A stretch of DNA of 64,000 bases from Candidatus Omnitrophota bacterium (GTDB taxonomy: Bacteria; Omnitrophota; Gorgyraeia; Zapsychrales; Zapsychraceae): assembly GCA_028280285.1 (NCBI GenBank), contig JANQMA010000026.1:822-64821 (forward strand), in the 5' to 3' direction. The translations under genes and the position numbers were made by a program. Under the pieces are notes generated by a model. That model had not been told where the DNA came from. It made no database searches and was given only the letters and a program-made list of their open reading frames with translations. Positions 3,001-63,288 of this stretch are shown here, piece by piece (position 1 is the stretch's first letter; each line of letters opens with the position of its first letter).

Positions 3001-6000
3001 AAGACTTAAAGCTAAAAATAATCAAGGAGATGCGGATGCAGATAAGCTGCTACTTAGGCATCGTTTGTTGACCGATATAATACGGTCTAGTTTAGTTAGG
3101 TTCAGTGTATCTTTAGATCGTATGATTTCTGAGATGCGATTATCACTTGAAGTAGATGAAGAATCGGTTCAGGAAGTGGATCTGCATTATGTGGACTACA
3201 CTCTTCGGGCGATACATTTGACTTTAGACTTTTTAATAACAGATGTAGACAAAGCCGCGCTTGAGCAGACTGATGCGGCGATATTATTAAGTCCTGAGGA
3301 GGAAGAAAGAGCGCTATTATTAACAGCAGCTGAAGATCGAATTAATACGCTTTTGGATGAGCAGTACAAATCAGGAAGTGTAACAAAAGAAATTTATGAA
3401 AAATCAAGGAAAAGCGCCTTTAAAAATTTTAAAGAATGGACAGAAAGCGAAGAGCTGTACCGCTTAGCACCGGGGATTCGCATGGCCAATTTGCAGGCTG
3501 TCCGTGATGGACGTTTTAATGATATCGTGGAGGCTTATCGTCAAGAAATCGCCTTTGGAACAGCAGGTATTCGCGGGAAAGCGGCACTAACTCTGGATGA
3601 ACTTTTTAAAATGAAAGAGGATGGTCCAGCGGCAGCAATTCTTAAGGGAATTAACACAATTAATGATGTCGTTCTTCTACATAAAACAGCCGGTGTTATC
3701 AAATATGCACAGGAGACAGGGCGCACACGTATTGTGCTTGGGTATGATAGCCGCATCGGCGGATCAGAATTTATTGATATGATTGCGCGTTTATTCATTA
3801 AAGCGTCCAAGCCCGAACATGAATTTAAACTTTTTATTTTTGACGAATCGGCGCCTTTTCCAGAGCTGTCTTTTGGTATTACAACAAAAGAAGTTCAAGG
3901 GCATATCGGTATTTTTATATCGGCAAGCCATAACCCTGCGGATTATAACGGATACAAAATTACACTGGAAACAGGAGCCCAATTGAACCAAGAAAATAAA
4001 AATCTTGTATTGGATGCGGTAAATAGAACAACATTTGCAGATATTGTGTTAGCAGATTCACTTGCGGATGCTAAACCTGGACAAATTGTATGGTTAGGTG
4101 GGAAAGAAAGGCTAGAAGATAAGCAGTATTATGGATTTGATTTGATCGATATGCATACATTACATGTTGAACAGGTAAAAAAGTTGATTCTTGATAAAGA
4201 AGCGATCACGCGTGAAGGGCGTAATGTTAATATCGGATTTGCTGCATTTAATGGGGCCGGGCGCAAAGCAGTACCACGTTTGTTGGATGAAACAGATTTT
4301 GATAATGTAAAGGTTGTGTCAAAACTCCAAGAGTTAGACGGGCTTTTTCCTGCCTTTAAATATGGAGAACAACCCGATCCAGGTGACCCAATTGCAGGGG
4401 AAATTGCCGTCAATGAGTTCATTAAGGAGCATGGGCAAGAAGCGTTTGATGAACTAGATCTTCTGGTGGGAACTGATCCTGATTCTGATCGTATGGGCGC
4501 GGTACTGAAAGTCCCTGAAAGCCAACAAGCACAATTTGGAAAATATAGATTAATATCAGCCAATGATGCCTGGACACTCCTTACATGGTACAGACTTATG
4601 AAAAAGAAGGAGATGGGTTTATTAGAAAATCCCGAAAACCATCTTGTTGTAACAACACATGCAACGAGTGATGCGATTGCTGAAGTTGCTGAACAGGAAT
4701 TTGGTGTTGGTTCATATGGAAGAATGTTAGATATGAATAAAAAAGAAGATCGTGGAGATTATTTAAATGGTCAGCGCACATGGGTTGGCTTTACATATGT
4801 CTCAGAGGCTTTTGAGGAAATTTTAAAGATGGGGAAAGTTGCCGAAGGCGGTTATGAAGAATCTAATGGAATGAGTTTGCACGGACACACAAATGATAAA
4901 GATGGAACTTTGGCGGCCATTTTATTTGCGGAAATGGCGGCTTATGCGAAATCAGAAGGAACAACGCTATTTGAAATGCTCGATGAAATTTATTTAAAAA
5001 TAGGGCATTTTGGAACGGCTAACAAACCGTTACCAAGGGTTGGTTCGTTTGAAGGGGCAGCAGGCGTTTCAGAGAAAATTAATATATTAAAGAAAGCACA
5101 AGAGTGGGCGGCTGAAGCAAATAGTCGTGCCGGAACAGATAATCCTTTTATGATTGCCGGCCGTGAGGTTATCGGAGCCGTTGAGTTTAAATCGGGGCGC
5201 ATTGATCATAATCACTATGAAGGCGTACCTGATGAAGGAATTAGATTTTTCTTTAAAGATGAAAACATGAAAGAGGGGGATCATTTTATAAAGAGTAAAA
5301 ATTATGTAATGATTCGCCCTTCCGGTACATCTCAGACATTACGATTCTATACACAACTTCTTAAAAAAGTTGATCGTGAAAATATTGCTCAGCAAAAGCT
5401 GGAAAATTATATAGCGACAGAGCAATTAGCGCTTATGACGCAAAGGCAAATCTTGGGAGATGTTGGTTTGACTAAATATTTTGCAATGGTGGATGCACAA
5501 CTAGCGGAAGTAAGTCTTTCTAATGATAACGCAGCAATTGAAGAGGAAAAAGAAGATGCAGCAAGCTTGGCCGCTGAAGTTGCCTTGAAGCAGCTGGAAC
5601 GGGCCATTGGGGATGATTTTTCCTTTTTTATGAATTATACAGCAAAATTAGAGTATCAAGGTAATGTTAGAAATATTTATTATAACGATAATAGGCCTTT
5701 AGAATTAGAAATGTTAGAAAAAGTTATGCGTCATTATCAGAAATTGTTAATTGACCATGGGTTTTTCGATTTGGAGGTCAAGCGTCTGCGCATTCAAGGA
5801 TTACCGATTGACAATGAAGTCCTTAAGGTAACCCGTCAATCAGAATTTGAGTATGCTATAAATTTAGGCGATAGCAAGCCGGTTAGCATGAGTATTGATG
5901 ATATTCGTTCATTTATTAGACAAGCCCGGGCTAAGCTTCTTAAGAATGGAGATATAAGAAACGGTATTTTAACGCAACTGGCAAAACAATTAAGTAAAAA

Positions 6001-8059
6001 GGGTATTGCGCGTCTAGAGATTCAGCCATTCCTACCGTGGACTTCGGGATGGGTTTTTGAGTCTCATCCTGAGGGTAAGTTTGAGTTGTTGAGAAAGGGC
6101 AAGCCCGTTGAGGTGACGGAAGGGCTGTTGACTCGAATTGCAAACAAAGCTATAGAAGAACTAAACCGTAAAAAAGCTGAGAAGGATTTTAAAAACAAAG
6201 GATTTAAAAAATTACTCGAAGACGCCGCGGCATTTACAAAAGAAGATTTAGCAAGTATCGCCCGTATTTCAACAGAAATTATCTCAGAAGAAAAAATGAA
6301 AACAATTATAGCGAAACTAAAGGCAATTCGTGAATCATCAAGTACACCTTCAGAGCTAAAAGAATCACGTGAAAGTGCTGTGCAAGGAATGCTAAATGAC
6401 TTTCAAGAGTATGCTACGCAGGTTTTAGGCGAAATTAATACCCTAAGAGCGAAAGCAAATCAAGATCCTATTGAGGAATTTATTGGTAAATATGATACAT
6501 TCAATCATGATGGAAAAGATTATCATATTACTATGAACGAATCGCTCACAATTTTTGCTCAACATTGGAATGGTCCATTTCCTCTGGAAAGAGTTACTGG
6601 GGCTTTGTTAAGGGCAATATCAGTTAAACTTACTACTCAGAAAGACAATTTACAGGAGGATGTTAAGGCGTTAAATGCAGAAGCATTGGAAGCTGAGCAA
6701 AGTAAAATTGATGAGTTTCTTGATGATGCGGCATTAACAGTAGTTGAAGCAACGCCTGCCGACGCCGCGGCATTGAATATGGTAGAGAAATTGGCTAAAG
6801 GGCTTAACGGTCAAACAATAGGTCTGTTGACTCTGGATTATGATTCTGATGAGAGTAAAAGATCGGATACTAAAGGACTCGCTGTCTTTGAATTGAATAT
6901 GAAACAAGCAACTTCTATTAATGCATTTATGGAACTTCATGTTGGCGTTGAACGGATCAAAAAAGCCAAAGGTGAGAAGAAAGATACGATGCGTGTGTAT
7001 GTGAATTTGTCAGGACAGATTAAAGAGCAGACTGCTGATGGGATAGAGAGATTTGATGTGTTAGAAATTATTCAGGAAAGAGGTGAAGATCGAAAGATTG
7101 TGGAGGAGTTTGCTCATCAATTAATGGACAGACTTCCTTCCATTGTTGAGTTTGGGAATAGGGTTTTGCAGATTGATTTTGAAAAAAATATTGTTGATAC
7201 GGTAGGTGAGACAGAGCTTAAAGAGTACTTTGCAGAGCGTAAGGCTAAAGTAAAGGTTACACAATATGCCGGTGGACCTGTTATGAGTGTAATATTTGGT
7301 CCTGCCGCACTTGAGCAGGAAGGGCAAGACGGGTCCAATGATTATCTATTGTTTTCTGTATTAGCGAACTCAAAAGTTTTAACAAAAGATGATAAAAACG
7401 CACTTAATTTTACATATACCCGGGTTGATGACTACGTTGATTCAGTAAAGAGAACGCAAGATTTATATTGGGATGTTGTTGAAAAAATAGGTGATCGGTT
7501 AAAAGAAAAAGGGATTCTCAACGCGGAAATGACTTCACTTAAAATGAGGGCACCTGTCCTTGGAAAGTTTAGGGGAAAGACAATTATTTTTAAAGAAAAT
7601 CCGAATAGATTTAACGTTAACCAATATACGGCGCCGTCAACGAAATATGCTTTATTTAGATATGAAGGTGTGAAGGAAGTGATAATGAAGCCTGATGAGA
7701 TTACAGAATCTATGCTTCGTAAGGTAATTAAAGCGGCAAATAAAGCATTGGAAGATCACGCGGCACTTGACCCGCTTGGGGGTATTGATCTTAATCCTGA
7801 CCTTTTGGATCTGCAAATTAAGCGCGACGGCCGCGGTATTCCACTGCCACTTGATCAACAACCGCTTGAAAATATGCAAATTGACGGTTTTCTACCTATT
7901 ATTATTAATATTAATCCAGTTGCCAATTTGCCGCTTCTTTTGGGGCTTCTAGATGAGGATGGAGAGACCAATGAGGCTGAGGCGGATGCCTCTCAATCAG
8001 CGCAACTATATGGAAGAGAAGAACTTAGCTATTTAAGAGAAGGTGACAGCGAATTCTAA
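1..8059 (+). CDS. Giant exported-family protein, paralog A (5' end lies outside the window; >2680 aa) with embedded phosphohexomutase domain
   Basis: ORF is open to the window edge. Codons 2-16 (IHNYQ) continue the paralog alignment 'IYIHN..VFLTDSHLKVMLEKD' seen in 14001..17330, so GTG at 17 is internal. Shares the N-module (NFATLRQIFNSVILASWYKDNLKE...YFSGG) and C-module (GGIDLNPDLLDLQIKRDGRGIPLP...GFLPIIININPVANLPLLLGL) with the next two genes. Stop TAA at 8057-8059. Confidence 0.85.
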   Translation, partial: IHNYQVFLTDSHLKVMLEKDLFAARQEIGADVAHMEAAGELVSSEEVAAVIREVLIPEIEYEINHGKNFATLRQIFNSVILASWYKDNLKESLLGKVYVDQNKLEGINDNDTATNEAIYNQYLEAFKAGVYDYIKEGYDPSAQQMTAKKYFSGGIADLVSLKRKDNGVLGKDLTGSDSATLANQLRIRIANFEVNLLEWVKELTSGIEERAKQKHEAAVRYRDFIDTKERVNIEKGLSNLPEKYERAARALMELPKAYFSQRQIRSLQTRIIKSPRRQLESTSESIAQSLELKLTKSMSANTEYNYNNIIRFVFKDVVSGAKALHIISTDMSGNYHEQPWIRPSKDIKLVVDLFRRFAELQPDPTTFKKADNLLANYFNDGSATAWAAIGLGNTEITDPDFYRELMAGNLRREQIAQKILYFSEIVDEYESVKLDRTTAVTEDKLIGFNGLRPASVLDVLRELVDIEKIIKTSDAASIADIPDDVISPKRKQEHINKLKKAGTLASSVEKQKLRTDTIKAMLQDFYEYTQRILRENDKKRSSNSLTTLGYFMPDIKSMEFQYNQSEYELVEQDNSLVVYSLGDERSILPNQDITSNLLVEISKVLKQRADRMTQKTEEAVKKSSDEEWEEIYNLVGDESDAWLDLDSAEGQMKDEASLDTLLIDYKGHDPELRDVTNVINALPKKYREAIEEADRPSSVADIITKAESEGLVEFAIITKSDQVRPAIRRLFYDEELLPVTSASLAVNYTGKTQITKRVTEVLNAEAKDDSDFDQQLRGGLLKREVIIERVMNSKHAPDDLRAGDRYVLIGAAIDELVERGNMKTSDAAALGQETVDEFDAADLDIEKEDDWDDIIKAVRQLKPGKTEEGLHEAIMAYMKRHQKMFKVDQGAYEMYVLPQMSRIFAEFYEMGGIPLYMLKGLKDHLDEISKAPTRDEQVFFLATVTLNILGLHEYDAKKIFSDSSLPMQDSGISKEDRINTITKNYDALKEKAQFLSVIESRLKAKNNQGDADADKLLLRHRLLTDIIRSSLVRFSVSLDRMISEMRLSLEVDEESVQEVDLHYVDYTLRAIHLTLDFLITDVDKAALEQTDAAILLSPEEEERALLLTAAEDRINTLLDEQYKSGSVTKEIYEKSRKSAFKNFKEWTESEELYRLAPGIRMANLQAVRDGRFNDIVEAYRQEIAFGTAGIRGKAALTLDELFKMKEDGPAAAILKGINTINDVVLLHKTAGVIKYAQETGRTRIVLGYDSRIGGSEFIDMIARLFIKASKPEHEFKLFIFDESAPFPELSFGITTKEVQGHIGIFISASHNPADYNGYKITLETGAQLNQENKNLVLDAVNRTTFADIVLADSLADAKPGQIVWLGGKERLEDKQYYGFDLIDMHTLHVEQVKKLILDKEAITREGRNVNIGFAAFNGAGRKAVPRLLDETDFDNVKVVSKLQELDGLFPAFKYGEQPDPGDPIAGEIAVNEFIKEHGQEAFDELDLLVGTDPDSDRMGAVLKVPESQQAQFGKYRLISANDAWTLLTWYRLMKKKEMGLLENPENHLVVTTHATSDAIAEVAEQEFGVGSYGRMLDMNKKEDRGDYLNGQRTWVGFTYVSEAFEEILKMGKVAEGGYEESNGMSLHGHTNDKDGTLAAILFAEMAAYAKSEGTTLFEMLDEIYLKIGHFGTANKPLPRVGSFEGAAGVSEKINILKKAQEWAAEANSRAGTDNPFMIAGREVIGAVEFKSGRIDHNHYEGVPDEGIRFFFKDENMKEGDHFIKSKNYVMIRPSGTSQTLRFYTQLLKKVDRENIAQQKLENYIATEQLALMTQRQILGDVGLTKYFAMVDAQLAEVSLSNDNAAIEEEKEDAASLAAEVALKQLERAIGDDFSFFMNYTAKLEYQGNVRNIYYNDNRPLELEMLEKVMRHYQKLLIDHGFFDLEVKRLRIQGLPIDNEVLKVTRQSEFEYAINLGDSKPVSMSIDDIRSFIRQARAKLLKNGDIRNGILTQLAKQLSKKGIARLEIQPFLPWTSGWVFESHPEGKFELLRKGKPVEVTEGLLTRIANKAIEELNRKKAEKDFKNKGFKKLLEDAAAFTKEDLASIARISTEIISEEKMKTIIAKLKAIRESSSTPSELKESRESAVQGMLNDFQEYATQVLGEINTLRAKANQDPIEEFIGKYDTFNHDGKDYHITMNESLTIFAQHWNGPFPLERVTGALLRAISVKLTTQKDNLQEDVKALNAEALEAEQSKIDEFLDDAALTVVEATPADAAALNMVEKLAKGLNGQTIGLLTLDYDSDESKRSDTKGLAVFELNMKQATSINAFMELHVGVERIKKAKGEKKDTMRVYVNLSGQIKEQTADGIERFDVLEIIQERGEDRKIVEEFAHQLMDRLPSIVEFGNRVLQIDFEKNIVDTVGETELKEYFAERKAKVKVTQYAGGPVMSVIFGPAALEQEGQDGSNDYLLFSVLANSKVLTKDDKNALNFTYTRVDDYVDSVKRTQDLYWDVVEKIGDRLKEKGILNAEMTSLKMRAPVLGKFRGKTIIFKENPNRFNVNQYTAPSTKYALFRYEGVKEVIMKPDEITESMLRKVIKAANKALEDHAALDPLGGIDLNPDLLDLQIKRDGRGIPLPLDQQPLENMQIDGFLPIIININPVANLPLLLGLLDEDGETNEAEADASQSAQLYGREELSYLREGDSEF
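3389..5420 (+). other. Complete alpha-D-phosphohexomutase (PGM/PMM, PgcA/PGM2-like) domain embedded in the giant ORF
   Basis: All four family motifs are in frame. FGTAGIRG begins at 3551. Phosphoserine loop SASHNP is at 3920-3937. Metal loop GTDPDSDRMG is at 4469-4498. Sugar loop GGYEESNG is at 4847-4870. Phosphate loop IRPSGTSQTLRFY is at 5312-5350. Domain boundaries are approximate. Confidence 0.85.
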
Positions 8060-8122: not shown

Positions 8123-8192
8123 TATAACTATAATATTAGAAATTAAGGCATTTAGGTGCTGTTTGTATACTTTTACCAGGGAAGGGGTAAAT

Positions 8193-11100
8193 ATGTCTAT
8201 TAGTTTTAAATCATCCAGTAAATCTCCATTGACTCAGATTACATCCCTATTTGTCGCGTTTATATTTTGTTTTACTTCCGTTATTGCTCCCGGCTCGGCC
8301 CGGGCACAATTTATCCCGACACCGGCTGTCATGCCGGCAGTCGGCAGTATGGTGCAGATTTCCAATGCCTTTGATCCGCTTATTATCAAGGGTCTTACCA
8401 TTCATCCGGAGAATCCTCTGGAGTTTTCATTTTTAGTCGATTTAGGCGATACCAATTATAGCGAAACAAAGATCAAAGATGAGTCGCAGCGGCTGATTAC
8501 CTATTTTATGGCCGGTTTAACGGTCCCTGAAAGCGAGCTGTGGGTCAACCTTTCCCCTTATGAGAATAACCGTATTATTCCCGACAGCCTTGGCCAGACA
8601 GCCATGGGGCGTGATCTTCTCGCGCAAGACTATCTGCTTAAGCAGTTAACCGCGTCTTTAATGTATCCGGAAGATGAACTGGGCGATAAATTCTGGACAC
8701 AGATTAAACAGCGTGTGGAAGCTTTATATGGTCCGGGCGTTGATATCCCGACCAATGTGTTTAACAAGGTCTGGATTATGCCGGAAAGTGCGGAAATCTA
8801 TATTCATAACACCAGTGTTTTTCTTTTGGGTAGCCGTCTTCAGGTTATGCTGGAAGAAGATTATGTGGCGGCGCGCAAGGCCATTGGCGCGGATGTTGCG
8901 CATATGGAGACTGCCGGAGAGTTATTGGGCCATCAAGAGGTAGCGGAGGTTGTCCGTGAAGTGATCCTGCCGGCTATTGAAGAAGAAGTCAACTTTGGCG
9001 AAAACTTTTCTACCCTGCGGCAAATCTTTAATTCGATTATCCTTGCCTCCTGGTACAAAGACAATCTGAAAGAAACGATTTTAGGCCAGATTTATGCCGA
9101 TCAAAACAAGCTTAAAGGGATTGATGAAAACGACAAGCAAACAAATCAGCAGATTTATCAAAAGTATTTAGAGGCCTTTGAAGAGGGTGTTTATAACTAT
9201 ATTAGAGAAGAGTACGATCCGGCTAAGCAGCAGATTATTCCACGCAAATACTTCTCCGGCGGATGGCTTCATGATCAGGCAGCGCTACTCACTCATGAAA
9301 ATACAGTAGTGGAAGGCCAGTACGGCCAACCCCTTGATGCAGCCGTGCTTCAGAATTTTGGCAAGGCTATGACTCCTGAAGTTGTGAGGAAAATGAAACG
9401 AGTTAGGGCTCAATTGGCTCAAGAAAGTGCGAAAACGCATACAGTTGAGTCAATTGCTTACCAACCGCTTTTGTCTAATATTCCAAAGACAATAATTAAT
9501 AATGTGGAGGCTAGCCAACTAACCGATTTATTACAAGAAGATCAAATTAATCTCATCGCCAGAAAAACGCTGCTTGAGCTTATTAATCAGAGGGGTGTTT
9601 TGGATTATGGGATTGATGTTAATGTGCAAGCGGGTGAAGCGATCGATTTTATTTTTAACACAGACATGGATGACCGGATTATGCGTGCCGTGCGCACAGA
9701 ATTGCAATCGGAAGAAGAGTTGAGCACGCAACGCATGCTTGATTTGTTAGATGCATTTAGTGTAGAAGTTACGATTGTTGAAGGTGGTGCTTCTCGTTCT
9801 GAGGAAATGAGTTTGCGTGATTATATTCAAGGTAATCTCCAACATGCCGTTTATTTGGCCCATGCTGTCGGTAATGCGGATGAAAGAGGTGATGAGTCGA
9901 CGCGTGTAAGAAAGCGAAGAGGAATAAGAGAACAATTAGAACGTAGCTTTCCCGGTGTTAGCTCGGTAACTCTTAGAACTATTGCGCGTGATTTGGTTAA
10001 ATTACAAAGGAACAGATTAAATGATGATCATATGTCATTAATCGTACAAGCTGTTTCTGATAAGGTCCAGGCTAAGGTTAGTTTTGATCAGGTATACACA
10101 ACAGATGAATTTTCTTTCCGTGTTAGAAAGCAAGGGCAACTGGAAATCGCCGCGGCACGGGGAAACATTTTTAGTGATGTATCGTGGGGTAGCTTAACAG
10201 TCAATCAGCTAGGCCTTATAGCCCAGGCGGTTGACAATGCTTCGATACAAGATCCCGTCGAACCCGGTACGATTCAACAGCAATCAATGGTGAAAGAATC
10301 CGCTGATTTTAACCGGATTACTTCATATGCGGGGCAATCTTTCCAAAGAGATAATTTGTCTCAATTGATGCGTGAAGCAAGCTTTGTATCAGAGAGCCGT
10401 GAAAATTTTGTTGAGTTAAGAGATCAATTCGAACGCATACGAACGGCGTCAGATCCGCAGGGTAGCATTGTTGGTATTAAGGTTATTGAAAATACTCAGC
10501 CTCTTCAATATGGAGGGGGTTTTGAGCTTGACGGCATAGTATATGTTGAACAAAGCTTATTAGATCATATCGAAAAGAATAATAACCCTTTTAATATGCG
10601 TGAACGTATGTTGCGCAATTTCTTTCGTAAAGGAACTGCCCTTGAGAGAAAAATTGCGGAATATGATGAATTGGTTCAAAAATACGGAGAATCCAGGTTA
10701 AACTTATTTCCGGAAGGCCGTGTCCTACAAAGCTATCGCGATACGCTTTATGGGCAATTACCGGCAGATAAAAATAATACAGAAAGGCTTAATATTATAC
10801 TTGAAAAACACGGATTCAATAATGTTAAAATTACTGAGCCTGATGAAAAAGCGATTGAATTAACTAATATATTAAAGGAACACATTGATATTGCTTTATA
10901 CACAATGGCGATCAATTCGGCGAATAAATTTATTGATTTAAATAAAAATATCCGTATGCATACGGATGATCCTTTATTGGATTCAAATGAGGAGTATGTA
11001 GCTAATTTTTTTGCTTTCGCCGCTTATCCAGCGACTGTTGCGCACTTTATTACTGTTGCCTTAAAAGGAGGCGCGCTGTCCTATTCGGATGATAATATTT

Positions 11101-13742
11101 TTTATGTGTCCAAAGATCAGCTAAAACCAGAGGCCTATCGTGAATATGATAGTCGTTATGATATTACGGAAGCCGTAGTGGAAAATACTATGCAAGGTCT
11201 GGCACGGTTAATGCCCAAAACGACTGAAAGGCAGGGCAAAAATGGAGAAAACATGTTGCTTCCTCTGGCTGAAAAGAATATAGGAGCTAAGCAAATCACT
11301 TTTAATTATATGATTGGGGAGGATCATTGGCTTGCCTTTGCGCGCTATACTGAAGACCATGTGAAAAAAGCAAAGCGAACAATTAATGATCTTGAGAAAG
11401 AAAAAGAGCAATTAAACAGTAAGATAAAAAATGCTGAGGTGCCAGAAGAAAAAGATCAAACGGAGTTTCGAGTAGAAATTAATAGGCGCCTAACAGAGAT
11501 TGATCAAAAAATAGAGCACAACCAGAATATTAAGGCGGGAGGTATTATACCCACCCGTGTAAAGTTGGATGAAGCGGATTTTATGGTTATGGAGGGGTAT
11601 CTGGATTTATTGAAATTATTGCTTGAGAAGGATAAAGAAAGCTTAACAGATCAGCAGGTTGAGGCCATTGAAGTACTCCTTGACCAAAGAGCTCTTTTCT
11701 TAGATGAATTGTCTGATGCGGCTGAGGAAGATAGGAAGTTAGATAACGATGACCCTGAAGATACGCCACATTTGTTTGAAGTATTTAAAAAATATGGTAT
11801 TTCAGAAGTTCCTAAGCTGGACACAGCCGGAAAGATTCATTTATCGGCAAAGGAATTTAAAAAACGTCATCCGGATCAGCCTATTGAAATGAGGGTTGTA
11901 ATTACCAAGCGCGGCAGTATTATGGAAGATAAAATTCGCGATGAGCTTAAAGTTCCACATACTATTAATCCAGGTTTGGACTATCCGGTTTCTTCAACCG
12001 CACTGAGAACTGCGCTTGTGAATATTCCACGTGATAGGTTAGACCGAGGTGAATTGCCTTTTGTATTTATCGATACCGTGGATGAATTATTAGAATCTCA
12101 GAGGAGAGAACATCTTTATTCATTGTTATTGACAAAAAGTGAACCAACCCTAGCTAATGCACTTGAAGTTGTATTTCCTAAAAATCAAGCAAGAAAAGAA
12201 CAGCGGCATACTCAATTAAGAGCAGATCTTCAACAGGCGCTTCAAGAGGGATATTATACCAACAATGTAAATGTTGATGGGCATGTTGAGCCCAAAAACA
12301 ACCGTTCTGTATTGGACATTCAAGTTAATGACGATAAATTTCGTGTTGTCTATAATGTTGTCAATCGTGCAAAGACAAAGGGAAACATAGTTCGATTTGC
12401 TGTTAGCGATCAGAATAATAAAGAAATTAGTCAGACGGAGTGGTCAGAAAAATCTGTTTTAAGTAGTGCCGTAGAAGAATATTTGAAAAGTTATACTGGC
12501 GCTGTTGTTACGACATACTTGCCACTTGAGGAGTTAAGTAAACGTGAGCTTGTCCATCAAAGAGGTAAGGATCTCAATTTTCTTTCCAGCAATGATGGTC
12601 AAATTATGCAATTCATGCAAGAGTTTGCGCAGGAATTCACACATGATACTACTACTGAATCCCGTGAACAAGAATTATCAGAAGACTTTGAGCTTGTTGT
12701 CTTTGACCGCCCACGATTTTTACGTCAAGATGGGCGGATTGAGATTCAATTTACTCATCAAATATTTAATGATCCAGTTAATAAGGCATGGACAGCAGAT
12801 GGATATTTTCAATATATTGATGAAAAAATTGTTTCTGAGCTAAATTGGTTTTTAAGTGATAGGCGACTAAAAGCCGAAGCGCTAAACAATACGTTAACGA
12901 TCAATAAGAATAGAGACGGCATGCCTTACGTTACAATGGAAATTGAAATATCTAAGGTCTCGGCTACTTTGGGGCAAAAAGACAGTGAAAACGAGTCCGA
13001 CGCCCCGACTATGACCAGTGGACAAAGATTATTTGTTGTTAACGAATCGCAGAATAAGGTAAACCAATTTAGTGTAGAGGATATGGATCCTGATTTTGGA
13101 AGGATAAAAAGCACGGCAACGGTACGGTTTCTTCCGTCGAACGGTAACGGTGTTGTCAAGGGTATGGTGAGGTATATTCCTAATCAACGTGATAATTCAA
13201 ATCAAAATGAATTAAATAAATTAAAATTTAAATTAAAAGAAAAATATGTGCAGAATAATGAACAAGAAAAGCGCGATATCGAAGAGGAAATTAAAACACT
13301 TGAGACTAAGCTTAAAGAAAGCAGGGAAAATGTTTTAACAAAACTTGAAAAGGAGTTAAATTCTTTAAACGATGACCTCAATCCCGGAGAAACACAGGAG
13401 TATGATGTTAAACCTTCTCGACTCGTTACCAATGATGGCTTTGAACTAACCATTACGTTGCAGGATAACGCAGCGGTTACAGCCGATCCGGTGGGTGGTA
13501 TTGATCTTAATCCCGAGATGCTTGATCTTCAGATCAAACGCGACGCAAGCGGCATGCCGCTTCCGGTGAGTCAGCAGCCGATTATCAATATGGATATCGA
13601 AGGGTTTGTGCCGGTTATTATTAATATCACGCCTGTTACCAATGTTCCGCTTATGCTGGGTTTAATTAATGAAGGAACGATTGAGGTAGAAGAAGAGCCG
13701 CTTGAGGCCGTTCAGGCCGTCCGGTTTGATGAGTTGAGTTAA
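8193..13742 (+). CDS. Giant exported-family protein, paralog B (1849 aa)
   Basis: ATG 8193 is preceded by GGAAGGGG. Signal peptide ends ...APGSARA|QF. Has the conserved N-module and C-module (GGIDLNPEMLDLQIKRDASGMPLP...GFVPVIINITPVTNVPLMLGL) around a unique ~1400-aa core with coiled-coil stretches. Confidence 0.85.
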   Translation: MSISFKSSSKSPLTQITSLFVAFIFCFTSVIAPGSARAQFIPTPAVMPAVGSMVQISNAFDPLIIKGLTIHPENPLEFSFLVDLGDTNYSETKIKDESQRLITYFMAGLTVPESELWVNLSPYENNRIIPDSLGQTAMGRDLLAQDYLLKQLTASLMYPEDELGDKFWTQIKQRVEALYGPGVDIPTNVFNKVWIMPESAEIYIHNTSVFLLGSRLQVMLEEDYVAARKAIGADVAHMETAGELLGHQEVAEVVREVILPAIEEEVNFGENFSTLRQIFNSIILASWYKDNLKETILGQIYADQNKLKGIDENDKQTNQQIYQKYLEAFEEGVYNYIREEYDPAKQQIIPRKYFSGGWLHDQAALLTHENTVVEGQYGQPLDAAVLQNFGKAMTPEVVRKMKRVRAQLAQESAKTHTVESIAYQPLLSNIPKTIINNVEASQLTDLLQEDQINLIARKTLLELINQRGVLDYGIDVNVQAGEAIDFIFNTDMDDRIMRAVRTELQSEEELSTQRMLDLLDAFSVEVTIVEGGASRSEEMSLRDYIQGNLQHAVYLAHAVGNADERGDESTRVRKRRGIREQLERSFPGVSSVTLRTIARDLVKLQRNRLNDDHMSLIVQAVSDKVQAKVSFDQVYTTDEFSFRVRKQGQLEIAAARGNIFSDVSWGSLTVNQLGLIAQAVDNASIQDPVEPGTIQQQSMVKESADFNRITSYAGQSFQRDNLSQLMREASFVSESRENFVELRDQFERIRTASDPQGSIVGIKVIENTQPLQYGGGFELDGIVYVEQSLLDHIEKNNNPFNMRERMLRNFFRKGTALERKIAEYDELVQKYGESRLNLFPEGRVLQSYRDTLYGQLPADKNNTERLNIILEKHGFNNVKITEPDEKAIELTNILKEHIDIALYTMAINSANKFIDLNKNIRMHTDDPLLDSNEEYVANFFAFAAYPATVAHFITVALKGGALSYSDDNIFYVSKDQLKPEAYREYDSRYDITEAVVENTMQGLARLMPKTTERQGKNGENMLLPLAEKNIGAKQITFNYMIGEDHWLAFARYTEDHVKKAKRTINDLEKEKEQLNSKIKNAEVPEEKDQTEFRVEINRRLTEIDQKIEHNQNIKAGGIIPTRVKLDEADFMVMEGYLDLLKLLLEKDKESLTDQQVEAIEVLLDQRALFLDELSDAAEEDRKLDNDDPEDTPHLFEVFKKYGISEVPKLDTAGKIHLSAKEFKKRHPDQPIEMRVVITKRGSIMEDKIRDELKVPHTINPGLDYPVSSTALRTALVNIPRDRLDRGELPFVFIDTVDELLESQRREHLYSLLLTKSEPTLANALEVVFPKNQARKEQRHTQLRADLQQALQEGYYTNNVNVDGHVEPKNNRSVLDIQVNDDKFRVVYNVVNRAKTKGNIVRFAVSDQNNKEISQTEWSEKSVLSSAVEEYLKSYTGAVVTTYLPLEELSKRELVHQRGKDLNFLSSNDGQIMQFMQEFAQEFTHDTTTESREQELSEDFELVVFDRPRFLRQDGRIEIQFTHQIFNDPVNKAWTADGYFQYIDEKIVSELNWFLSDRRLKAEALNNTLTINKNRDGMPYVTMEIEISKVSATLGQKDSENESDAPTMTSGQRLFVVNESQNKVNQFSVEDMDPDFGRIKSTATVRFLPSNGNGVVKGMVRYIPNQRDNSNQNELNKLKFKLKEKYVQNNEQEKRDIEEEIKTLETKLKESRENVLTKLEKELNSLNDDLNPGETQEYDVKPSRLVTNDGFELTITLQDNAAVTADPVGGIDLNPEMLDLQIKRDASGMPLPVSQQPIINMDIEGFVPVIINITPVTNVPLMLGLINEGTIEVEEEPLEAVQAVRFDELS

Positions 13743-14000: not shown

Positions 14001-17000
14001 TTGAAGTCGCTTAAATCTTTCATCCTATCTAAAGTCATTTCATCGCTTACTATATTAATATTTTTATTAGGTAATATTATTATTCCAACCAATACATACG
14101 CAGAGCAAATTGCCACGCCTGTCTTTATGCCGCCTGTAGGTAGTATGATAGGCGCAAGTGAAATGTATACGCCAACGATTATCAACGGATTAATCATCAA
14201 TCCCGATGATCCACTGCAATTTTCATTCCTTGTCGATGCCGGTGATGCGAATCTTCAAGGCGAGGCGTTTAAAGAAGAGTCGCAACGCTTAGTGAATTAT
14301 TTTATGGCGGGGTTAGCTGTTCCGGAAGATGAGATATGGGTTAACTTGTCGCCCTATGAGAAAAATCGTATTGTTCCTGATGCCTTAGGGCAAACAGCGA
14401 TGGGGCGTGACTTGCTTGCCCAAGATTATTTGCTTAAACAATTTACAGCTTCTCTGATGTATCCGGAAGATGAAATGGGTAAAGCCTTCTGGAAGCGAAT
14501 TAAAGAGAAGGTAAGCACCAAACATGGCATTGATGATATCCCGACTAATATGTTTAGTAAAGTTTGGATCGTCCCAGAAAGTGCAAAGATTTATATTCAC
14601 AATATGACAGTATTTTTAACGGATAGTCATTTAAAGGTTATGCTTGAAAAAGACTATTTAGCGACGCGTGAGGCGGTAGGTGATGATGTATCGCATATGG
14701 AAACAGAGCAGGAGCTTTTATCTTCAGAAAATGTTGCCTCTATCATACGAGACATCATTATTCCTGAAATTGAGCATGAGGTAAATCATGGCAAAAACTT
14801 TGCACCTCTTCGCCAAATCTTTAACTCGGTTATTCTTGCTTCCTGGTACAAGGCGAACTTAAAAGAGTCTTTGCTCGGACAAATCTATATTGACCAAAAC
14901 AAAATCGAAGGCATTAATGACAATGCGCCGGCAACGAATCAAGCGATTTACGACCAGTATCTAGAGGCCTTTAAAGCAGGCGTTTATAATTATGTGAAAG
15001 AAGAGTATGACCCTGCAGCCCAGCAAATGGTGGCGCAAAAATATTTTTCCGGCGGGATCGCAAACGATTTTGCAGCAATGGTTGATAATTCCAAATTACA
15101 AACAGTTGGAAAAATAATGGACGGGTTGGATCCGGCCAACATATCTGATTTGCAGAATAGCAATAGTGGGAGTATTCAAAGAGTAGATGTTGAAGTAAAG
15201 CCTGAAGAAATAAATCTTACTACAGTGGATGCTGCCATTTTAGAAGAAATTTCTTACATAAAAGCACTACTGGAACTTTCCTTTGAAGAAGAAGGTAATA
15301 ATGGTGATGAGGAATTTATTGAGGAAATCATGAGCAGTACATCGAGAATAATTGATTACTTCAAAGGTGCTGAAGAAAAGGATTTTAAATCTGACTATGA
15401 AGAAACTGTCCAACACTTAGTTTGGTGGCTTGGGTTCAAATTGCGTGAGGCTAGCTCTCCTGAGGATGGGTTAAATAAGACAATTCAAGTTAATTTCTTA
15501 CATAAAGGCAATGAATATGAGTACGTAGAAAAAAATGATATTAATAGGTCGATGGTAAGGGTTAAAAGTGACAGTTGGAAGAAGGAAGTTAGTCCAATAA
15601 ATACTCCAAGTCTTGCTGAGAACATCAGTTTACTTGAAGTCATGTTGGCTAGCAGTAGGCGAAACCTTGATACACATGTAAGGCGTCCAGTCAAAAACGA
15701 TGTCATTGAGCGTGTCAGGAAATGGCCTTTATTTGTTTTTGAGAATAACGCCGAAAGAAGATGGGTTCTTGATGCGCTTACAAGGAGACGTAATAAAGAT
15801 ATTAATTTAGGTAGCCTCCAGCTTGACGGCTTTGATGCTATTTTAGACAGAATTATTTCACGCCAACTAAAGGGTCAAAAGCGTAATGTAACCGTTGACG
15901 AAAAGCAAATACTTTTAAATCCTATTAATAACAGAAAAACTCTTTACGGAGGGGCGGATATAAGCAGCATACCTATTTTGGTATTACTTAGTATTGTTGA
16001 AGAGATTTACGAGCTGAAGATGTCTAATGAGGTTATTGAGACTACCAGGAAAAAGATGGAGTCAGTTAAGGATAATACTTGGAATATAGTTCGAAAATTT
16101 ATTGATGAGCAAATGAGCGAATATGAGGATCATGAATTGGTTTGGTCGATATATACGAAACCTGATTCTGATTTTAATACAGAAACAGTGTTGGTTATTG
16201 TTCCAAAGAAAGAAAATATAGATCGAGAAAAATTTAATCGGCAGATTGGTATTTTAAGTGAAGCGATTATTGAAAATGTAAATCTTCCCGAGGGGATAAA
16301 TATATTTAAACAAGGGGATAAAAACGCTTCAGATAAAGATTTATTAATCTTCAGAGAAAAAGAAGATGTTAAATTTACTGATGCTGAATCAGGAGAAATA
16401 TTGGAGTTTTATGAAGGAGTAAAGTTGCGTATTAAGCATGCTCCCGAATTTTTCCAACTTGACGGGAAAGGTAATCAATCAGTATTATCACAAAATGACC
16501 GCGAAAAACGGGCTGTGCGCAATATTACACGTGATTTTTATTTGGATTTACGTGTGGCAGATGAAACAAAAGACGATTTAAAACGGATCGATGTCCATTA
16601 TTATTATGGGCTTTCCTCTGGTCGTCGAGGGGTTGTGCCTATTTATGTAAAACAAGATGAGGATATTAACAATATTGCTGATGCGTTGTTGTTTGGTGTG
16701 CAGAGCCAGGTTAATGAAACTAATTTTTATAGACTTATATTTAATGATGTGCGCAGTACTTTAGTTAGACTTTTTGATGGAGAAAATCAAAAAAGACTTA
16801 ACCAGTTTGATAAAATTATTGCCGAAGCGGTAAAAAAAGGAAAATTTGCAAGCGAAGCAAAAGAAAAAATCTTTAAATGGGGCAGAGAAAATCAGCAGTA
16901 TACAGATAAAGAAGGATTAGAAGAGTTTCTACGTGCGCAATACGCGACTTTTAATATTGATTCAGAAATTATACTTAAGCATCTTCTTGACTCAGACTAC

Positions 17001-17330
17001 TTTTCCCAAATAAAAGATATAGTCCGCGGGTTTGACTTGAGCGCAGATAATGCTCATCTGACACCCGGTGGTATTGACCTTAATACCAAGATGCTTGATC
17101 TTAAGCTTGAGTATGATGGCAGCAATATACTGCCTACCGTGGATCCTGCGGTCTTAAAAGACATCAACATTAAAGGGCTTACCCCAATTATTACGAATGT
17201 GGTGCCGATCAGCAATTTGCCGCTTATGCTCGGGTTTGGTGATGGGCCGGGTTCGGATGACTCCGGGCCCTATACGATGGGGTCTGTTGGCGATCTTTCC
17301 TATCTTAAGTCGCAGGAGTTATATAAGTAA
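14001..17330 (+). CDS. Giant exported-family protein, paralog C (1109 aa)
   Basis: TTG start lies 6 nt after GAAGGAG. Signal peptide ends ...PTNTYA|EQ. The N-module is about 3/4 identical to paralog A by hand count over ~150 aa. C-module is GGIDLNTKMLDLKLEYDGSNILP...GLTPIITNVVPISNLPLMLGF. The core is unique. Confidence 0.85.
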   Translation: MKSLKSFILSKVISSLTILIFLLGNIIIPTNTYAEQIATPVFMPPVGSMIGASEMYTPTIINGLIINPDDPLQFSFLVDAGDANLQGEAFKEESQRLVNYFMAGLAVPEDEIWVNLSPYEKNRIVPDALGQTAMGRDLLAQDYLLKQFTASLMYPEDEMGKAFWKRIKEKVSTKHGIDDIPTNMFSKVWIVPESAKIYIHNMTVFLTDSHLKVMLEKDYLATREAVGDDVSHMETEQELLSSENVASIIRDIIIPEIEHEVNHGKNFAPLRQIFNSVILASWYKANLKESLLGQIYIDQNKIEGINDNAPATNQAIYDQYLEAFKAGVYNYVKEEYDPAAQQMVAQKYFSGGIANDFAAMVDNSKLQTVGKIMDGLDPANISDLQNSNSGSIQRVDVEVKPEEINLTTVDAAILEEISYIKALLELSFEEEGNNGDEEFIEEIMSSTSRIIDYFKGAEEKDFKSDYEETVQHLVWWLGFKLREASSPEDGLNKTIQVNFLHKGNEYEYVEKNDINRSMVRVKSDSWKKEVSPINTPSLAENISLLEVMLASSRRNLDTHVRRPVKNDVIERVRKWPLFVFENNAERRWVLDALTRRRNKDINLGSLQLDGFDAILDRIISRQLKGQKRNVTVDEKQILLNPINNRKTLYGGADISSIPILVLLSIVEEIYELKMSNEVIETTRKKMESVKDNTWNIVRKFIDEQMSEYEDHELVWSIYTKPDSDFNTETVLVIVPKKENIDREKFNRQIGILSEAIIENVNLPEGINIFKQGDKNASDKDLLIFREKEDVKFTDAESGEILEFYEGVKLRIKHAPEFFQLDGKGNQSVLSQNDREKRAVRNITRDFYLDLRVADETKDDLKRIDVHYYYGLSSGRRGVVPIYVKQDEDINNIADALLFGVQSQVNETNFYRLIFNDVRSTLVRLFDGENQKRLNQFDKIIAEAVKKGKFASEAKEKIFKWGRENQQYTDKEGLEEFLRAQYATFNIDSEIILKHLLDSDYFSQIKDIVRGFDLSADNAHLTPGGIDLNTKMLDLKLEYDGSNILPTVDPAVLKDINIKGLTPIITNVVPISNLPLMLGFGDGPGSDDSGPYTMGSVGDLSYLKSQELYK

Positions 17331-33481: not shown

Positions 33482-33561
33482 AAACATTTTAAAACATTAA
33501 ACTTTAAACACTTAACAGATTTATTTCCAAACAGTTTAATGTTTATTGTTTAAAGTTTGAA
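33482..33561 (+). terminator. Heptad-periodic hairpin, family B (aaacatt / gtttaat)
   Basis: Left arm aaacatt aaacttt aaacact. Right arm gtttaat gtttatt gtttaaa gtttgaa. Confidence 0.45.
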
Positions 33562-51084: not shown

Positions 51085-51099
51085 TGAAAAACAATTTTT

Positions 51100-51158
51100 A
51101 AACAATAAACTTTAAACATTAAACAGGCTTGTTTAATGTTTAGTGTTTAAAGTTTAAT
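51100..51158 (+). terminator. Heptad-periodic hairpin, family B
   Basis: Left arm aaacaat aaacttt aaacatt aaacagg. Right arm gtttaat gtttagt gtttaaa gtttaat. Confidence 0.55.
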
Positions 51159-59803: not shown

Positions 59804-60685
59804 ATGACCGCAAAGAAGTTGAAACTAGGGTTACCAAAGGGCAGCCTTCAAGACGCAACGATCAAAGTCTTTGAACGAGCAGGGTTTAGGATCTATGTCT
59901 CGGGACGTTCTTATTTTCCGTCCATTGATGATGTCGAGATTGAGCCGGTTTTGTTAAGAGCCCAAGAGATGGCGCGTTACGTGGAAGAAGGGGCCTTGGA
60001 TTGCGGGATTACCGGGGCTGATTGGGTGTCGGAAAACAATTCAAAGGTTAATGTCCTTTCTAATTTAGTATATGCTAAGCAGAGTTCGGTGAAAGTCCGT
60101 TGGGTCCTTGCAGTTCCGGAAAAGTCAAAAATCAAAACGGCAAAAGATTTGGGTGGTAAAAAGATTGCAACGGAAGTGGTTAATATCACAAAGAAATATT
60201 TGCGTGATCATAAAGTAAAGGCTGAAGTCGAATTCAGCTGGGGTGCCACAGAAGCAAAGGTGGCCGACGGGTTGGTTGATGCGGTTGTTGAATTAACTGA
60301 GACTGGCAGCAGCTTACGTGCACACAAACTAAGGATAGTTGATACGGTGGCCGAGTCCATCACACAATTTATTGCGAATAAAAAAGCCACCAAAGATGCG
60401 TGGAAGAAGAAAAAAATGGATCAATTGTCAATGCTGCTCGAAGGAGCGATTGCGGCGAACAATATGGTGGGCCTTAAAATGAATGTGCACGAAAAAAATT
60501 ATGAAAAAGTGTTAAGTGTTTTATCATCACTGGAAAACCCGACGGTGTCGCCTCTCGCGAAGCCCGACTGGGTCGCGATTGAAACAGTCATTGACGAAGG
60601 TACAGTGCGTAACATTATTCCGCAACTGAAAAGTGCCGGAGCGACGGGGATTATTGAGTACCCATTGAATAAGTTGATATACTAA
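59804..60685 (+). CDS. hisG: ATP phosphoribosyltransferase, long form
   Basis: [23 protein letters not shown]-terminus. 293 aa including the C-terminal regulatory domain. Confidence 0.85.
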
Positions 60686-60698
60686 AATAAAATTGATT

Positions 60699-60775
60699 AA
60701 ACTTTAAACAATAAACATTAAACTGTTTGGCAAGATGTGAGTATATTGTTTAATGTTTAAAGTTTATTGTTTAAA
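60699..60775 (+). terminator. Heptad-periodic hairpin, family B
   Basis: Left arm aaacttt aaacaat aaacatt aaactgt, then loop, then right arm gtttaat gtttaaa gtttatt gtttaaa. Confidence 0.55.
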
Positions 60776-60808
60776 AATAATCCAAAACATTATCAGTCAG
60801 GTTACAAT

Positions 60809-60910
60809 ATGCCTTGCGGTAAAAAAAGAAAAGCCAGAAAAATTAGAACACATAAGCGTAAAAAACTACGCAAATCTATGCGTCACTTAAAGAAACGTAA
60901 ATCGCGTTAA
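60809..60910 (+). CDS. 33-aa highly basic protein, bS22-like (AURKAIP1/COX24-type) small ribosomal protein candidate; absent from the ORF track
   Basis: Hand translation gives MPCGKKRKARKIRTHKRKKLRKSMRHLKKRKSR*. This matches my recollection of the MPxGKKRK..K..THKRKK.LRK.RH pattern of bS22-type proteins. Confidence 0.55.
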   Translation: MPCGKKRKARKIRTHKRKKLRKSMRHLKKRKSR

Positions 60911-60959: not shown

Positions 60960-61964
60960 ATGTTGGATAAAAGCAGACAAAAGTTAGTGGGCATTCTCAT
61001 TGCAATGATGCTCGTCGTTGCTTATCCAAAACAGGTGTGTGCCTTTGCATTCCAAGATCGCGTAGCTACCGCCAAGAGCCTTGCGCATTACATGACAGGC
61101 CAGATTTATGATCTTCTTGGGGATCCTAAACGCGCTGCCATGGCGTATAAGGCGGCGTCTCAGTTTGATCCTTCCAGCTATTTAATTCGTCTTCGTCTTG
61201 GCGTTGATTATGCCCGGCTTAATATGTTGGGAGCCGCCGTTGAAGAGCTTAATATGGTCGGTGAGCTCAATAAAGACGAACTGCAGTCACACTATCTGCT
61301 TGCCCTTATTTATTCTTCGACACGACAGTTTGATAAAGCCGCGGAAGAATACGAGTATATTCTAACCACATTTTCTGAGTCAGACCCGAAGAATATCGAG
61401 ATCCATGGGTATCTTGGTCAGCTTTATTATTCTCAAAAAAAATATGATCAGGCCTTAAAACAGTTTGAACAGATTTATGCCTTGGAACCGGAGAATGCCG
61501 ATATTATGTATCTTCTAGGCTCTCTGTATATTGAAACCGGAAGAAGTGAAGAGGCATTTGAGATCTTAAATAAATCTATTAAAATTAACCCTAATCACGA
61601 CGGTAGTTTAAATACTTTGGCCTACATGTATGCCGAAGAGAACCGCAATTTAGATGAGGCGCTTGAGTATGTCAAACTGGCGATTAGTTTGTCCCCTGAC
61701 AACGGGGCCTATATCGATACCTTAGGATGGGTTTATTTTAAGAAAAAAGAATACAAAAAGGCTTTAGAGGCTTTGGAAGATGCCAATGCATTACTTAAGG
61801 ATCCTATCATACTTGATCATCTCGGTGATGTTTATATGAAGTTGAACAAACCTGATAAAGCGATCGAAAATTGGGAAGCTTCGTTAAAACTTAAGCCCGC
61901 TCAAGAAGAAGTTACGCGCAAGTTAAACGAGGCCCGCAACAACAGTGCCCACCGTACCGAATAA
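60960..61964 (+). CDS. TPR-repeat protein with signal/anchor sequence
   Basis: ATG 60960 follows AGGAG. Hydrophobic N-terminus followed by about 7 TPR units (A..Y......P.N...L..LG.VY). Confidence 0.65.
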   Translation: MLDKSRQKLVGILIAMMLVVAYPKQVCAFAFQDRVATAKSLAHYMTGQIYDLLGDPKRAAMAYKAASQFDPSSYLIRLRLGVDYARLNMLGAAVEELNMVGELNKDELQSHYLLALIYSSTRQFDKAAEEYEYILTTFSESDPKNIEIHGYLGQLYYSQKKYDQALKQFEQIYALEPENADIMYLLGSLYIETGRSEEAFEILNKSIKINPNHDGSLNTLAYMYAEENRNLDEALEYVKLAISLSPDNGAYIDTLGWVYFKKKEYKKALEALEDANALLKDPIILDHLGDVYMKLNKPDKAIENWEASLKLKPAQEEVTRKLNEARNNSAHRTE

Positions 61965-61972
61965 CGACAAAC

Positions 61973-62902
61973 ATGAACACCCTCACCCTCAAGTCCCCGG
62001 CTAAAGTCAATCTCTATTTAGAGGTTCTCAACAAGCGCGCCGACGGCTTTCACTCGATTGAGACAGTTTTTGAGAGACTTGATTTATGCGATGAAATAAC
62101 CTTTAAAAAGACGGCCAAAGATGGTATTACGATCAAATGTGCACATCCGCATGTCCCCTGTGGGCCTAAGAATTTGGTCCATAAAGTGGCCGTCCGGATC
62201 CAAAAAGATTTTGGTATTAGTGCTGGCGTAACCGTAACGATTAAAAAAAATATCCCGGTGGCGGCCGGCCTGGCCGGGGGCTCCAGTAATGCGGCAACGA
62301 CTCTTTTGGCTCTTAACCAGTTGTGGAATATAGGTTTAAGTAAATCCCAGCTTGATCGCTATGCAGCTGATCTTGGGAGCGATATTAATTTTTTCCTTAA
62401 TAAAGCCAGTTTTGCCCTTGGCACCGACCGTGGCCAAGTGATCCAAAAGCTTAATATTAGACGGAAATTGTGGCATATTGTGGTTGTCCCCAAGGTTAAA
62501 GTTTATGCGAAAGATGTCTACCAAAGCCTGTCCATTTCACCTGCCTCAGATGCTGTAACTACCCGTCAAACCAGGAGGTTAGGATCCAAAGCGGAAGGTG
62601 TCACGAATGTGTTGACAAAGAAGAAGCAAGGTGTTAATATTCTAATCCATCATTTGGAAAAAGGCAGTCCTTTGCACATTGCGCAGGGGATGAGCAATGA
62701 TTTACAGCAGGTGGTTATCGGTCTTTGTCCTAAATTAGAGAAATTGCAGAAGAAGCTTAAGTCATTGAATGCTAAGGGGGTTATGGTTTCAGGAAGTGGC
62801 CCTGCGGTGTTCGGCTTAACTGATTCTCAAAAAGAAGCGCAGGAAATAAAACGTATTTTAACCAAAACGTATAGCCAGGTCTACGTAACGAGAACTCTTT
62901 AG
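61973..62902 (+). CDS. ispE: 4-diphosphocytidyl-2-C-methyl-D-erythritol kinase
   Basis: SPAKVNLYLEV..KRADGFH and the GHMP motif PVAAGLAGGSSNAA. Confidence 0.85.
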   Translation: MNTLTLKSPAKVNLYLEVLNKRADGFHSIETVFERLDLCDEITFKKTAKDGITIKCAHPHVPCGPKNLVHKVAVRIQKDFGISAGVTVTIKKNIPVAAGLAGGSSNAATTLLALNQLWNIGLSKSQLDRYAADLGSDINFFLNKASFALGTDRGQVIQKLNIRRKLWHIVVVPKVKVYAKDVYQSLSISPASDAVTTRQTRRLGSKAEGVTNVLTKKKQGVNILIHHLEKGSPLHIAQGMSNDLQQVVIGLCPKLEKLQKKLKSLNAKGVMVSGSGPAVFGLTDSQKEAQEIKRILTKTYSQVYVTRTL

Positions 62903-62916
62903 AAAGAGGGGCGCCT

Positions 62917-63288
62917 ATGGAAGTGACAGAAGTTCGTGTCTTCCCAAAGGAAGGACAGGATAAAAAGTTAAAGGCATATGCAACAATTACGTTTGAAGAT
63001 GCGTTTGTTGTCAGAAACATTAAGGTTATAGAAGGTTCGAATGGACTTTTTATCGCTATGCCGTCGCGTAAAAATAAAATTTCGTGTTTAAGTTGCGGTT
63101 TTAAGAACGAAATCGGCAGCAAATTTTGTAATCAATGCGGTGTGAGGATTAATGAAGAAAGAGATCTCTCCGCAATCGATGTTAAGAACGAACATCGGGA
63201 CATTGCGCATCCTATCACGCAGCAATTTCGCGACTATCTACAGCAAAAAATCCTTAGTGAGTACAGTCGAGAAGTCGCTTCTGTATAG
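62917..63288 (+). CDS. spoVG: SpoVG-family protein with a zinc-ribbon insertion
   Basis: MEVTEVRV...KAYATITFEDAFVVRNIKVIEGSNGLFIAMPSRK and RDIAHPIT match the SpoVG core. A CLSC...CNQC insert sits between them. Confidence 0.8.
   Translation: MEVTEVRVFPKEGQDKKLKAYATITFEDAFVVRNIKVIEGSNGLFIAMPSRKNKISCLSCGFKNEIGSKFCNQCGVRINEERDLSAIDVKNEHRDIAHPITQQFRDYLQQKILSEYSREVASV

Follow-up and report, generated by a model that had tools for sequence, protein, structure and literature searches.

A conserved 33-codon gene downstream of hisG in Candidatus Omnitrophota is likely to encode the ribosomal protein bS22

The stretch of DNA analysed here, 64,000 nucleotides long with a GC content of 41% and referred to below as the window, carries a very short open reading frame (ORF) between hisG and a gene for a TPR-repeat protein. 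The features of this locus are:

59804–60685, + strand: hisG, encoding a long-form ATP phosphoribosyltransferase (Pfam HisG and HisG_C); the upstream neighbour of the ORF in 27 of 27 carrier loci
60695–60782, + strand: A/T-rich hairpin (MFE -26.1 kcal/mol, z -2.9)
60799–60801, + strand: weak Shine-Dalgarno-like AGG, read from the sequence, 7 nt 5' of the ORF's ATG
60809–60910, + strand: bS22-type ORF, with ATG at 60809 and TAA at 60908–60910; translation MPCGKKRKARKIRTHKRKKLRKSMRHLKKRKSR and stop (33 aa)
60960–61964, + strand: TPR-repeat protein gene (Pfam TPR families), with AGGAG before its ATG at 60960; the conserved downstream neighbour
61973–62902, + strand: ispE-like GHMP kinase gene, part of the hisG-bS22-TPR-ispE arrangement

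An earlier note on this DNA had described a hyper-basic ORF of 33 codons that opens at the ATG at 60809, between the hairpin that follows hisG and the TPR gene, and both its coordinates and its translation proved correct. The peptide contains 11 Lys and 8 Arg (58% basic residues, pI ~12), and no second ORF resembling it is found elsewhere in the 64 kb of the window. The start codon is ATG in all 28 copies of the ORF, that is, in the window and in the 27 related loci described below. The AGG upstream of it may function in ribosome binding; in most relatives the Shine-Dalgarno sequence is clearer than in the window, reading AAGGAG, GGAGG or AAAGGG at 5–12 nt upstream of the ATG. A start at the upstream in-frame TTG at 60767 (47 aa) was rejected, since that extension is not conserved and the ATG-started frame alone is; an overlapping ORF in the +2 frame at 60753–60890 (45 aa) was rejected because it is not conserved among relatives. 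The earlier note had also called the ORF unannotated and easily missed by automated annotation. Gene callers do in fact find it, and what is missing is a functional name: public data already include a gene call for an identical 33-aa peptide (MFT7539016.1), named 'hypothetical protein', and the Candidatus Omnitrophota homologue MBF0123528.1 bears the same name.

The hairpin following hisG is a copy of an intergenic repeat that also occurs elsewhere in the window; conservation of the bS22 locus does not extend to it. The arm of this A/T-rich palindromic repeat, TTTAAACAATAAACATTAAAC, occurs as inverted pairs at 33489–33554, 51097–51151 and 60695–60782, and as a 21-mer it has 7 matches in the window at no more than 3 mismatches, vs 0.02 expected. 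All three copies lie in intergenic spacers and can be aligned to each other. No T-run follows the repeat stem on the + strand, and the element looks REP-like or terminator-like. That the 'hisG hairpin' regulates the bS22 gene was rejected, since the repeat is dispersed and the measurable gap between hisG and the ORF in relatives (6–55 nt) is too small to hold it. Between the ORF and the TPR gene no terminator-like site was found, so co-transcription of the ORF with the TPR and ispE genes is likely, with translation probably starting at the ORF's own ATG.

To describe the conservation of the ORF, we used two sets of relatives. A word-indexed protein search, with the 47-aa upstream-extended frame as query, returned six 33-aa homologues, one of them identical to the window peptide; their contigs all show the order hisG - 33-aa ORF - TPR - GHMP kinase (ispE), with ispE followed in the longer contigs by glmU - prs - rplY. 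Separately, 80 hisG loci from genome collections were checked for an ORF after hisG, and 27 related loci were seen to carry a 28–33 aa version directly after it. All loci with Candidatus Omnitrophota in their title are carriers, as are five of the nine with a Planctomycetales/Planctomycetia label; a bS22-type ORF after hisG is absent from all Acidobacteriota, Nitrospirota and other loci among the 80 scanned. In the carriers the consensus MPCG(K/R)KRK..KI.THKRKK..R..RH lies a few to ~140 nt 3' of hisG, and one variant reads MPNLKKKRRKKIAKHKRKK. Downstream of the ORF, TPR homologues were counted in 26 of the 27 carriers and ispE homologues in 21; a second tally has TPR and/or ispE in 24. The hisG protein of the window has its closest relatives, at 59–80% identity, in Candidatus Omnitrophota MAGs, which places the window in that phylum; the identity of Acidobacteriota and others to it is similar or lower.

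The 33-codon ORF is a real gene under purifying selection at a fixed genomic position. Among its 25 distinct DNA versions, 14, 11 and 26 of 27 columns vary at the first, second and third codon positions, respectively, and the summed pN/pS comes to 0.20, synonymous sites being close to saturation. In the ORF, the window and its closest relative (L008) differ by 9 synonymous and no non-synonymous changes. Peptide identity stays at 52–100% across the loci while that of hisG drops from 89% to 59% and that of the TPR protein from 64% to 26%. A chance ORF could in principle arise in an A-rich intergenic stretch of a 41% GC genome, where Lys and Arg codons happen to stay open for 33 codons, and the ORF is indeed short, rich in AAA and AGA codons and devoid of any Pfam or NCBIfam match. 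Yet the frame is kept in 27 loci while the flanking DNA cannot be aligned between relatives, variation is concentrated at third positions, the ORF's frame is the only one free of stops in all 25 versions, and the similarity to bS22 described below lies at z ~10 above composition. Coding signature, frame conservation and the shuffle test thus refute a chance origin, to which we assign practically no weight. The earlier note had left conservation in relatives as a check on its reading, and the outcome is favourable: frame and position after hisG are both retained in the 27 loci.

Some of the labels and loci in this set deserve comment. Several MAGs labelled 'uncultured Planctomycetales/Planctomycetia' have the Omnitrophota gene order around hisG. 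The 3.1 kb contig L008 (JGI Ga0535658_0108940 / NCBI MFT7539016.1), which encodes the identical peptide, was deposited under the MAG label 'Lysobacterales bacterium'; it has a hisG with 89% identity to that of the window and all other close relatives are Omnitrophota, and it is probably a mis-binned contig or belongs to a mislabelled MAG. At L043 (4867–4890) the TPR gene directly follows hisG with no bS22-type ORF between them; in that lineage the gene has been either lost or moved.

We compared the 33-mer with all PDB chains using phmmer. Exactly three sequences were matched and all are bS22: 8fmw_V from Borrelia burgdorferi (E 3e-5), 7jil_5 from Flavobacterium johnsoniae (E 8e-4) and 9i5v_10 from Porphyromonas gingivalis (E 0.011), the last deposited as 'AURKAIP1/COX24 domain-containing protein'. 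The alignment to each chain is gap-free from residue 1. Since basic peptides can match by composition alone, the query was shuffled 5000 times with its composition preserved; none of the 5000 shuffles reached the real score against the three chains, which corresponds to z = 10.7, 9.9 and 8.7 in the order given above. The non-basic landmarks M1, P2, G4, T14, H15 and H26 are identical in all three chains, and C3 and I12 are also present in Borrelia, so that the ORF reproduces the bS22 register M-P-x-G-[KR]-K-R-K ... K ... T-H-K-R-K-K ... R-H from residue 1. Its 33 residues and 58% Lys+Arg likewise agree with a stand-alone bS22 ORF of ~28–33 residues and more than 55% Lys+Arg. Finally, a profile built from the window ORF and 63 metagenomic homologues, without any PDB sequence, retrieved only the three bS22 chains from the PDB up to E = 1 (6e-14, 2e-12 and 1e-11, the first and last being Flavobacterium and Porphyromonas, respectively). 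Judged by sequence, the window ORF is in the same family as three bS22 proteins validated by cryo-EM. Together with the lineage-wide purifying selection and the conserved position, these matches support what the earlier note had proposed, and we put at roughly 0.88 the probability that the ORF encodes bS22, a small-subunit ribosomal protein of Candidatus Omnitrophota.

The closest of these counterparts, B. burgdorferi bS22 (bb0822; PDB 8FMW chain V), is identical to the ORF at 19 of 28 positions without a gap, including MPCG, I12, THKRKK and RH. It matches the window ORF in its very small size and basic character, and only the cryo-EM work brought it to light, the genome annotation having lacked it (PMC10618245). 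It was also the single ribosomal protein of Borrelia that mass spectrometry failed to detect (PMC10618245), and peptides made up almost wholly of K and R are unsuited to tryptic proteomics. It differs in having 28 aa, a GUG start and the end ...RHKK, compared with 33 aa, ATG and RHLKKRKSR in the window, and in belonging to Spirochaetota rather than Omnitrophota. The proteins of F. johnsoniae (Fjoh_1533, PDB 7JIL chain 5) and P. gingivalis (PDB 9I5V chain 10) are identical at 18–19 of 30 positions in the same register and were also once annotated as hypothetical proteins (PMC7797042, PMC12123416). Residue 3 is S or N in these two but C in the window, as in many Bacteroidota, and their C-terminus is NRHKKKK whereas that of the window is MRHLKKRKSR. 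The gene context differs as well, being HU-TPR-bS22-RNase E/G in Bacteroidota and hisG-bS22-TPR-ispE in the window. By contrast, the 'S22' of E. coli (Sra/RpsV, a stationary-phase ribosome-associated protein) is of an unrelated protein family and has in common with the ORF only its small size and the historical name S22.

The earlier note had further suggested a profile search against the bS22/AURKAIP1 family, and here the ORF itself gave nothing: a Pfam and NCBIfam hmmscan produced no match even at E <= 10, and the ORF reaches neither the 34-bit cut-off of NCBIfam NF047430 (ribo_bS22, an actinobacterial equivalog) nor the 23-bit gathering threshold of Pfam PF08213 (COX24_C; DUF1713; AURKAIP1/mS38). 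As a control we ran four sequences, namely the bS22 proteins of Borrelia, Flavobacterium and Porphyromonas and a further bS22 sequence of the M. smegmatis type, its identity being backed by its own matches. The cryo-EM-validated Borrelia and Flavobacterium proteins have no match in Pfam or NCBIfam, and P. gingivalis bS22 scores 11.8 bits to PF08213, where the threshold is 23, and nothing to NF047430. The M. smegmatis-type sequence reaches 62.6 bits with NF047430 and an E of 4e-12 with PF08213. Since the curated libraries miss validated bS22 proteins, the null result does not bear on membership of the ORF in the family and is no refutation. Among 64 family members 31 match PF08213 weakly, all below threshold with a best E of 0.0087, and it is the sole family to recur. 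NF047430 and PF08213 describe the actinobacterial and mitochondrial type and barely graze the MPxG subtype; MPxG...THKRKK bS22 is at the edge of the PF08213 model.

The relation to the actinobacterial type, as described in the literature, is one of shape and position rather than of detectable sequence. The earlier note had attributed the pattern MPxGKKRK..K..THKRKK...RH to Bacteroidota and Actinobacteria; it does fit Bacteroidota, and Spirochaetota in addition, but not Actinobacteria, as the score of the ORF against M. smegmatis-type bS22 is what composition alone would give (z = -0.4 against shuffles) and hhalign gives no alignment between the family profile and M. smegmatis bS22. Actinobacterial bS22 (M. 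smegmatis MSMEG_0945), mitochondrial mS38/AURKAIP1 and eukaryotic eL41 are like the window ORF in size and charge, and they have an rRNA pocket and a bent-helix shape in common with MPxG-type bS22 (PMC10618245, PMC7797042, PMC12123416, PMC10081302). The two bS22 types have been treated as structural and positional counterparts (PMC7797042, PMC12123416), and their convergence has been raised as a possibility (PMC12123416).

AlphaFold2, run with the family alignment, predicts two helices (residues 4–23 and 25–32) interrupted at residue 24 (mean pLDDT 89). The ORF peptide would thus be a single bent alpha-helix, the shape that has been reported for bS22 (PMC10618245). When the model was compared with the PDB by Foldseek, 0 matches were returned, as expected for a single helix of 33 residues, and the window contains no rRNA, 16S included. 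In Borrelia, bS22 occupies a pocket of 16S helices h2, h27, h44 and h45 and contacts 23S H68 (PMC10618245). The Flavobacterium and Porphyromonas proteins are placed between h44 and h45, with their C-terminal lysines reaching 50S H70, and form an extra intersubunit bridge beside the decoding centre and the aminoglycoside site (PMC7797042, PMC12123416, PMC13000457). By homology, the Omnitrophota product would be a highly basic, kinked alpha-helix of 33 residues inserted beside the decoding centre, in the 16S pocket of h2, h27, h44 and h45. Its basic C-terminal tail would extend to H68/H70 of 23S rRNA, providing a further intersubunit contact, and its roles may include stabilising h44/h45, bridging the subunits and shaping the aminoglycoside pocket. 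The last ~7 residues in the window (LKKRKSR) differ from the solved bS22 proteins: after R25-H26, loci with a hisG identity of at least ~66% have L-K-K-R and three variable residues, vs KK(KK) in the solved proteins. The contact with the 50S subunit may therefore differ from theirs, and if there is a lineage-specific twist it is probably in this contact.

How firmly such a protein is held by the ribosome can be read in more than one way. A true bS22 homologue might be bound loosely or conditionally, only in 70S or initiation complexes, and not be a constitutive 30S protein. In F. johnsoniae, isolated 30S subunits lack bS22 density and 70S initiation complexes show it, for which a requirement for IF3 or the 50S subunit was suggested as the reason (PMC13000457). 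Furthermore, bS22 is non-essential in M. smegmatis, where its deletion is tolerated and raises sensitivity to kanamycin (PMC10081302). Borrelia bS22, on the other hand, is among the essential-gene candidates of a transposon library and has an abundant transcript (PMC10618245), and no sequence feature separates a constitutive from a conditional mode. We consider conditional binding in Omnitrophota rather unlikely; it refines the identification as bS22 more than it contradicts it.

Another alternative is that the ORF encodes a conserved basic micropeptide that merely resembles bS22 and has no ribosomal role, acting instead as a nucleic-acid-binding or nucleoid-associated protein, or as a leader or regulatory peptide for TPR-ispE. 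The gene neighbourhood gives it some substance. Outside Omnitrophota the bS22-type gene is placed after an HU (Bac_DNA_binding) gene (loci L089–L093), as HU-bS22 in candidate division TA06 and one unassigned contig and as HU-TPR-bS22-RNase E/G in Bacteroidota; within Omnitrophota it is tightly linked to non-ribosomal genes, the position after hisG being seen in Omnitrophota-type loci only. Ribosome binding in this lineage is something we infer by homology, and the loss of F. johnsoniae bS22 from isolated 30S subunits (PMC13000457) is also compatible with a peptide of another kind. Nevertheless, the family has been built, in the same register, into the cryo-EM density of three ribosomes from two phyla (PMC10618245, PMC7797042, PMC12123416), and a leader peptide would not keep 52–100% amino-acid identity phylum-wide while its neighbours fall to 26–59%. 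A non-ribosomal micropeptide is for these reasons very improbable, and bS22 remains the preferred reading of the ORF. The TPR neighbours of bS22 in Bacteroidota and Omnitrophota resemble each other no more than TPR repeats generally do.

We also asked how widely the family is distributed. An exhaustive phmmer search of the 33-mer against 1.84 billion representatives gave one match only at E <= 1e-3; since in so large a database significance is out of reach for a query of 33 residues, this single match is no evidence of rarity. A profile search of a 5.8-billion-protein collection found at least 1261 clusters (90% identity) at E <= 0.01 among the best 8000 candidates scored. None of the bS22-type clusters has a precomputed Pfam domain. 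Source names for them are few and read 'hypothetical protein' in Lewinella, other Bacteroidota, candidate division TA06 and Candidatus Omnitrophota, and occasionally 'AURKAIP1/COX24 domain-containing protein', in Thermoflavifilum and Sediminibacterium (Bacteroidota). The MPCG N-terminus occurs in 175 of 210 sequences retrieved, Bacteroidota included; being common to several phyla, it is not diagnostic of any one. The suggestion of the earlier note that the gene is a useful phylogenetic marker does not hold up for this family, which offers 33 low-complexity residues and an MPCG shared by Bacteroidota, Borrelia and TA06. The only feature to recur specifically is the RHLKKRxxx tail, in the closer relatives within Omnitrophota; together with the hisG linkage it provides a useful local signature.

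The Borrelia study predicted that bS22 would turn up elsewhere (PMC10618245), and our literature search found no paper that mentions bS22 together with Omnitrophota. Identification of the ORF as bS22 would add Omnitrophota to the lineages with a protein of this type, for which the earlier basis was ribosome structures from Actinobacteria, Bacteroidota and Borrelia. It would bring a new phylum to a known ribosomal-protein family, filling an annotation gap rather than revealing new biology, and would leave our knowledge of how ribosomes work unchanged. The gap itself is considerable, as Pfam and NCBIfam are blind to the MPxG...THKRKK subtype and more than 1000 protein clusters stay 'hypothetical'; a dedicated profile made from the alignment of the ORF family would close it. 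Moreover, a protein that bridges the subunits near the decoding centre and the aminoglycoside site would matter for modelling translation, and any antibiotic sensitivity, in uncultured Omnitrophota. MPxG-type bS22 now has members throughout Omnitrophota as well as in Bacteroidota, Spirochaetota and candidate division TA06. It is conceivable, though we hold this only tentatively and with the odds somewhat against it, that it is an old and widespread bacterial ribosomal protein, lost in model lineages such as Proteobacteria and Firmicutes and systematically under-annotated, and that the lengthened RHLKKRxxx tail of the closer Omnitrophota relatives makes a lineage-specific intersubunit contact.

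Several minor observations were made along the way. In two metagenomic sequences of 48 aa (P0008 and P0009) the N-terminal half of bS22 is tandemly duplicated, e.g. MPSGRKRLRQKMATHKGVY-MPSGRKRLRQKMATHKRKKRLRKNRHKKK, which may reflect either misassembly or a genuine internal duplication. Downstream of ispE, at 62917–63288, the window encodes a 123-aa SpoVG homologue in which the 82-position Pfam model is stretched over 117 residues, implying an insertion of ~36 aa that contains a weak double zinc ribbon (DZR) match at residues 57–79, and SpoVG homologues (59–73% identity) are found 3' of ispE in five relatives. At its other end the window carries three consecutive giant ORFs on the + strand, at 17–8059, 8163–13742 and 14001–17330 (2680, 1859 and 1109 aa), and in relatives, too, ORFs exceeding 1600 aa precede hisG.
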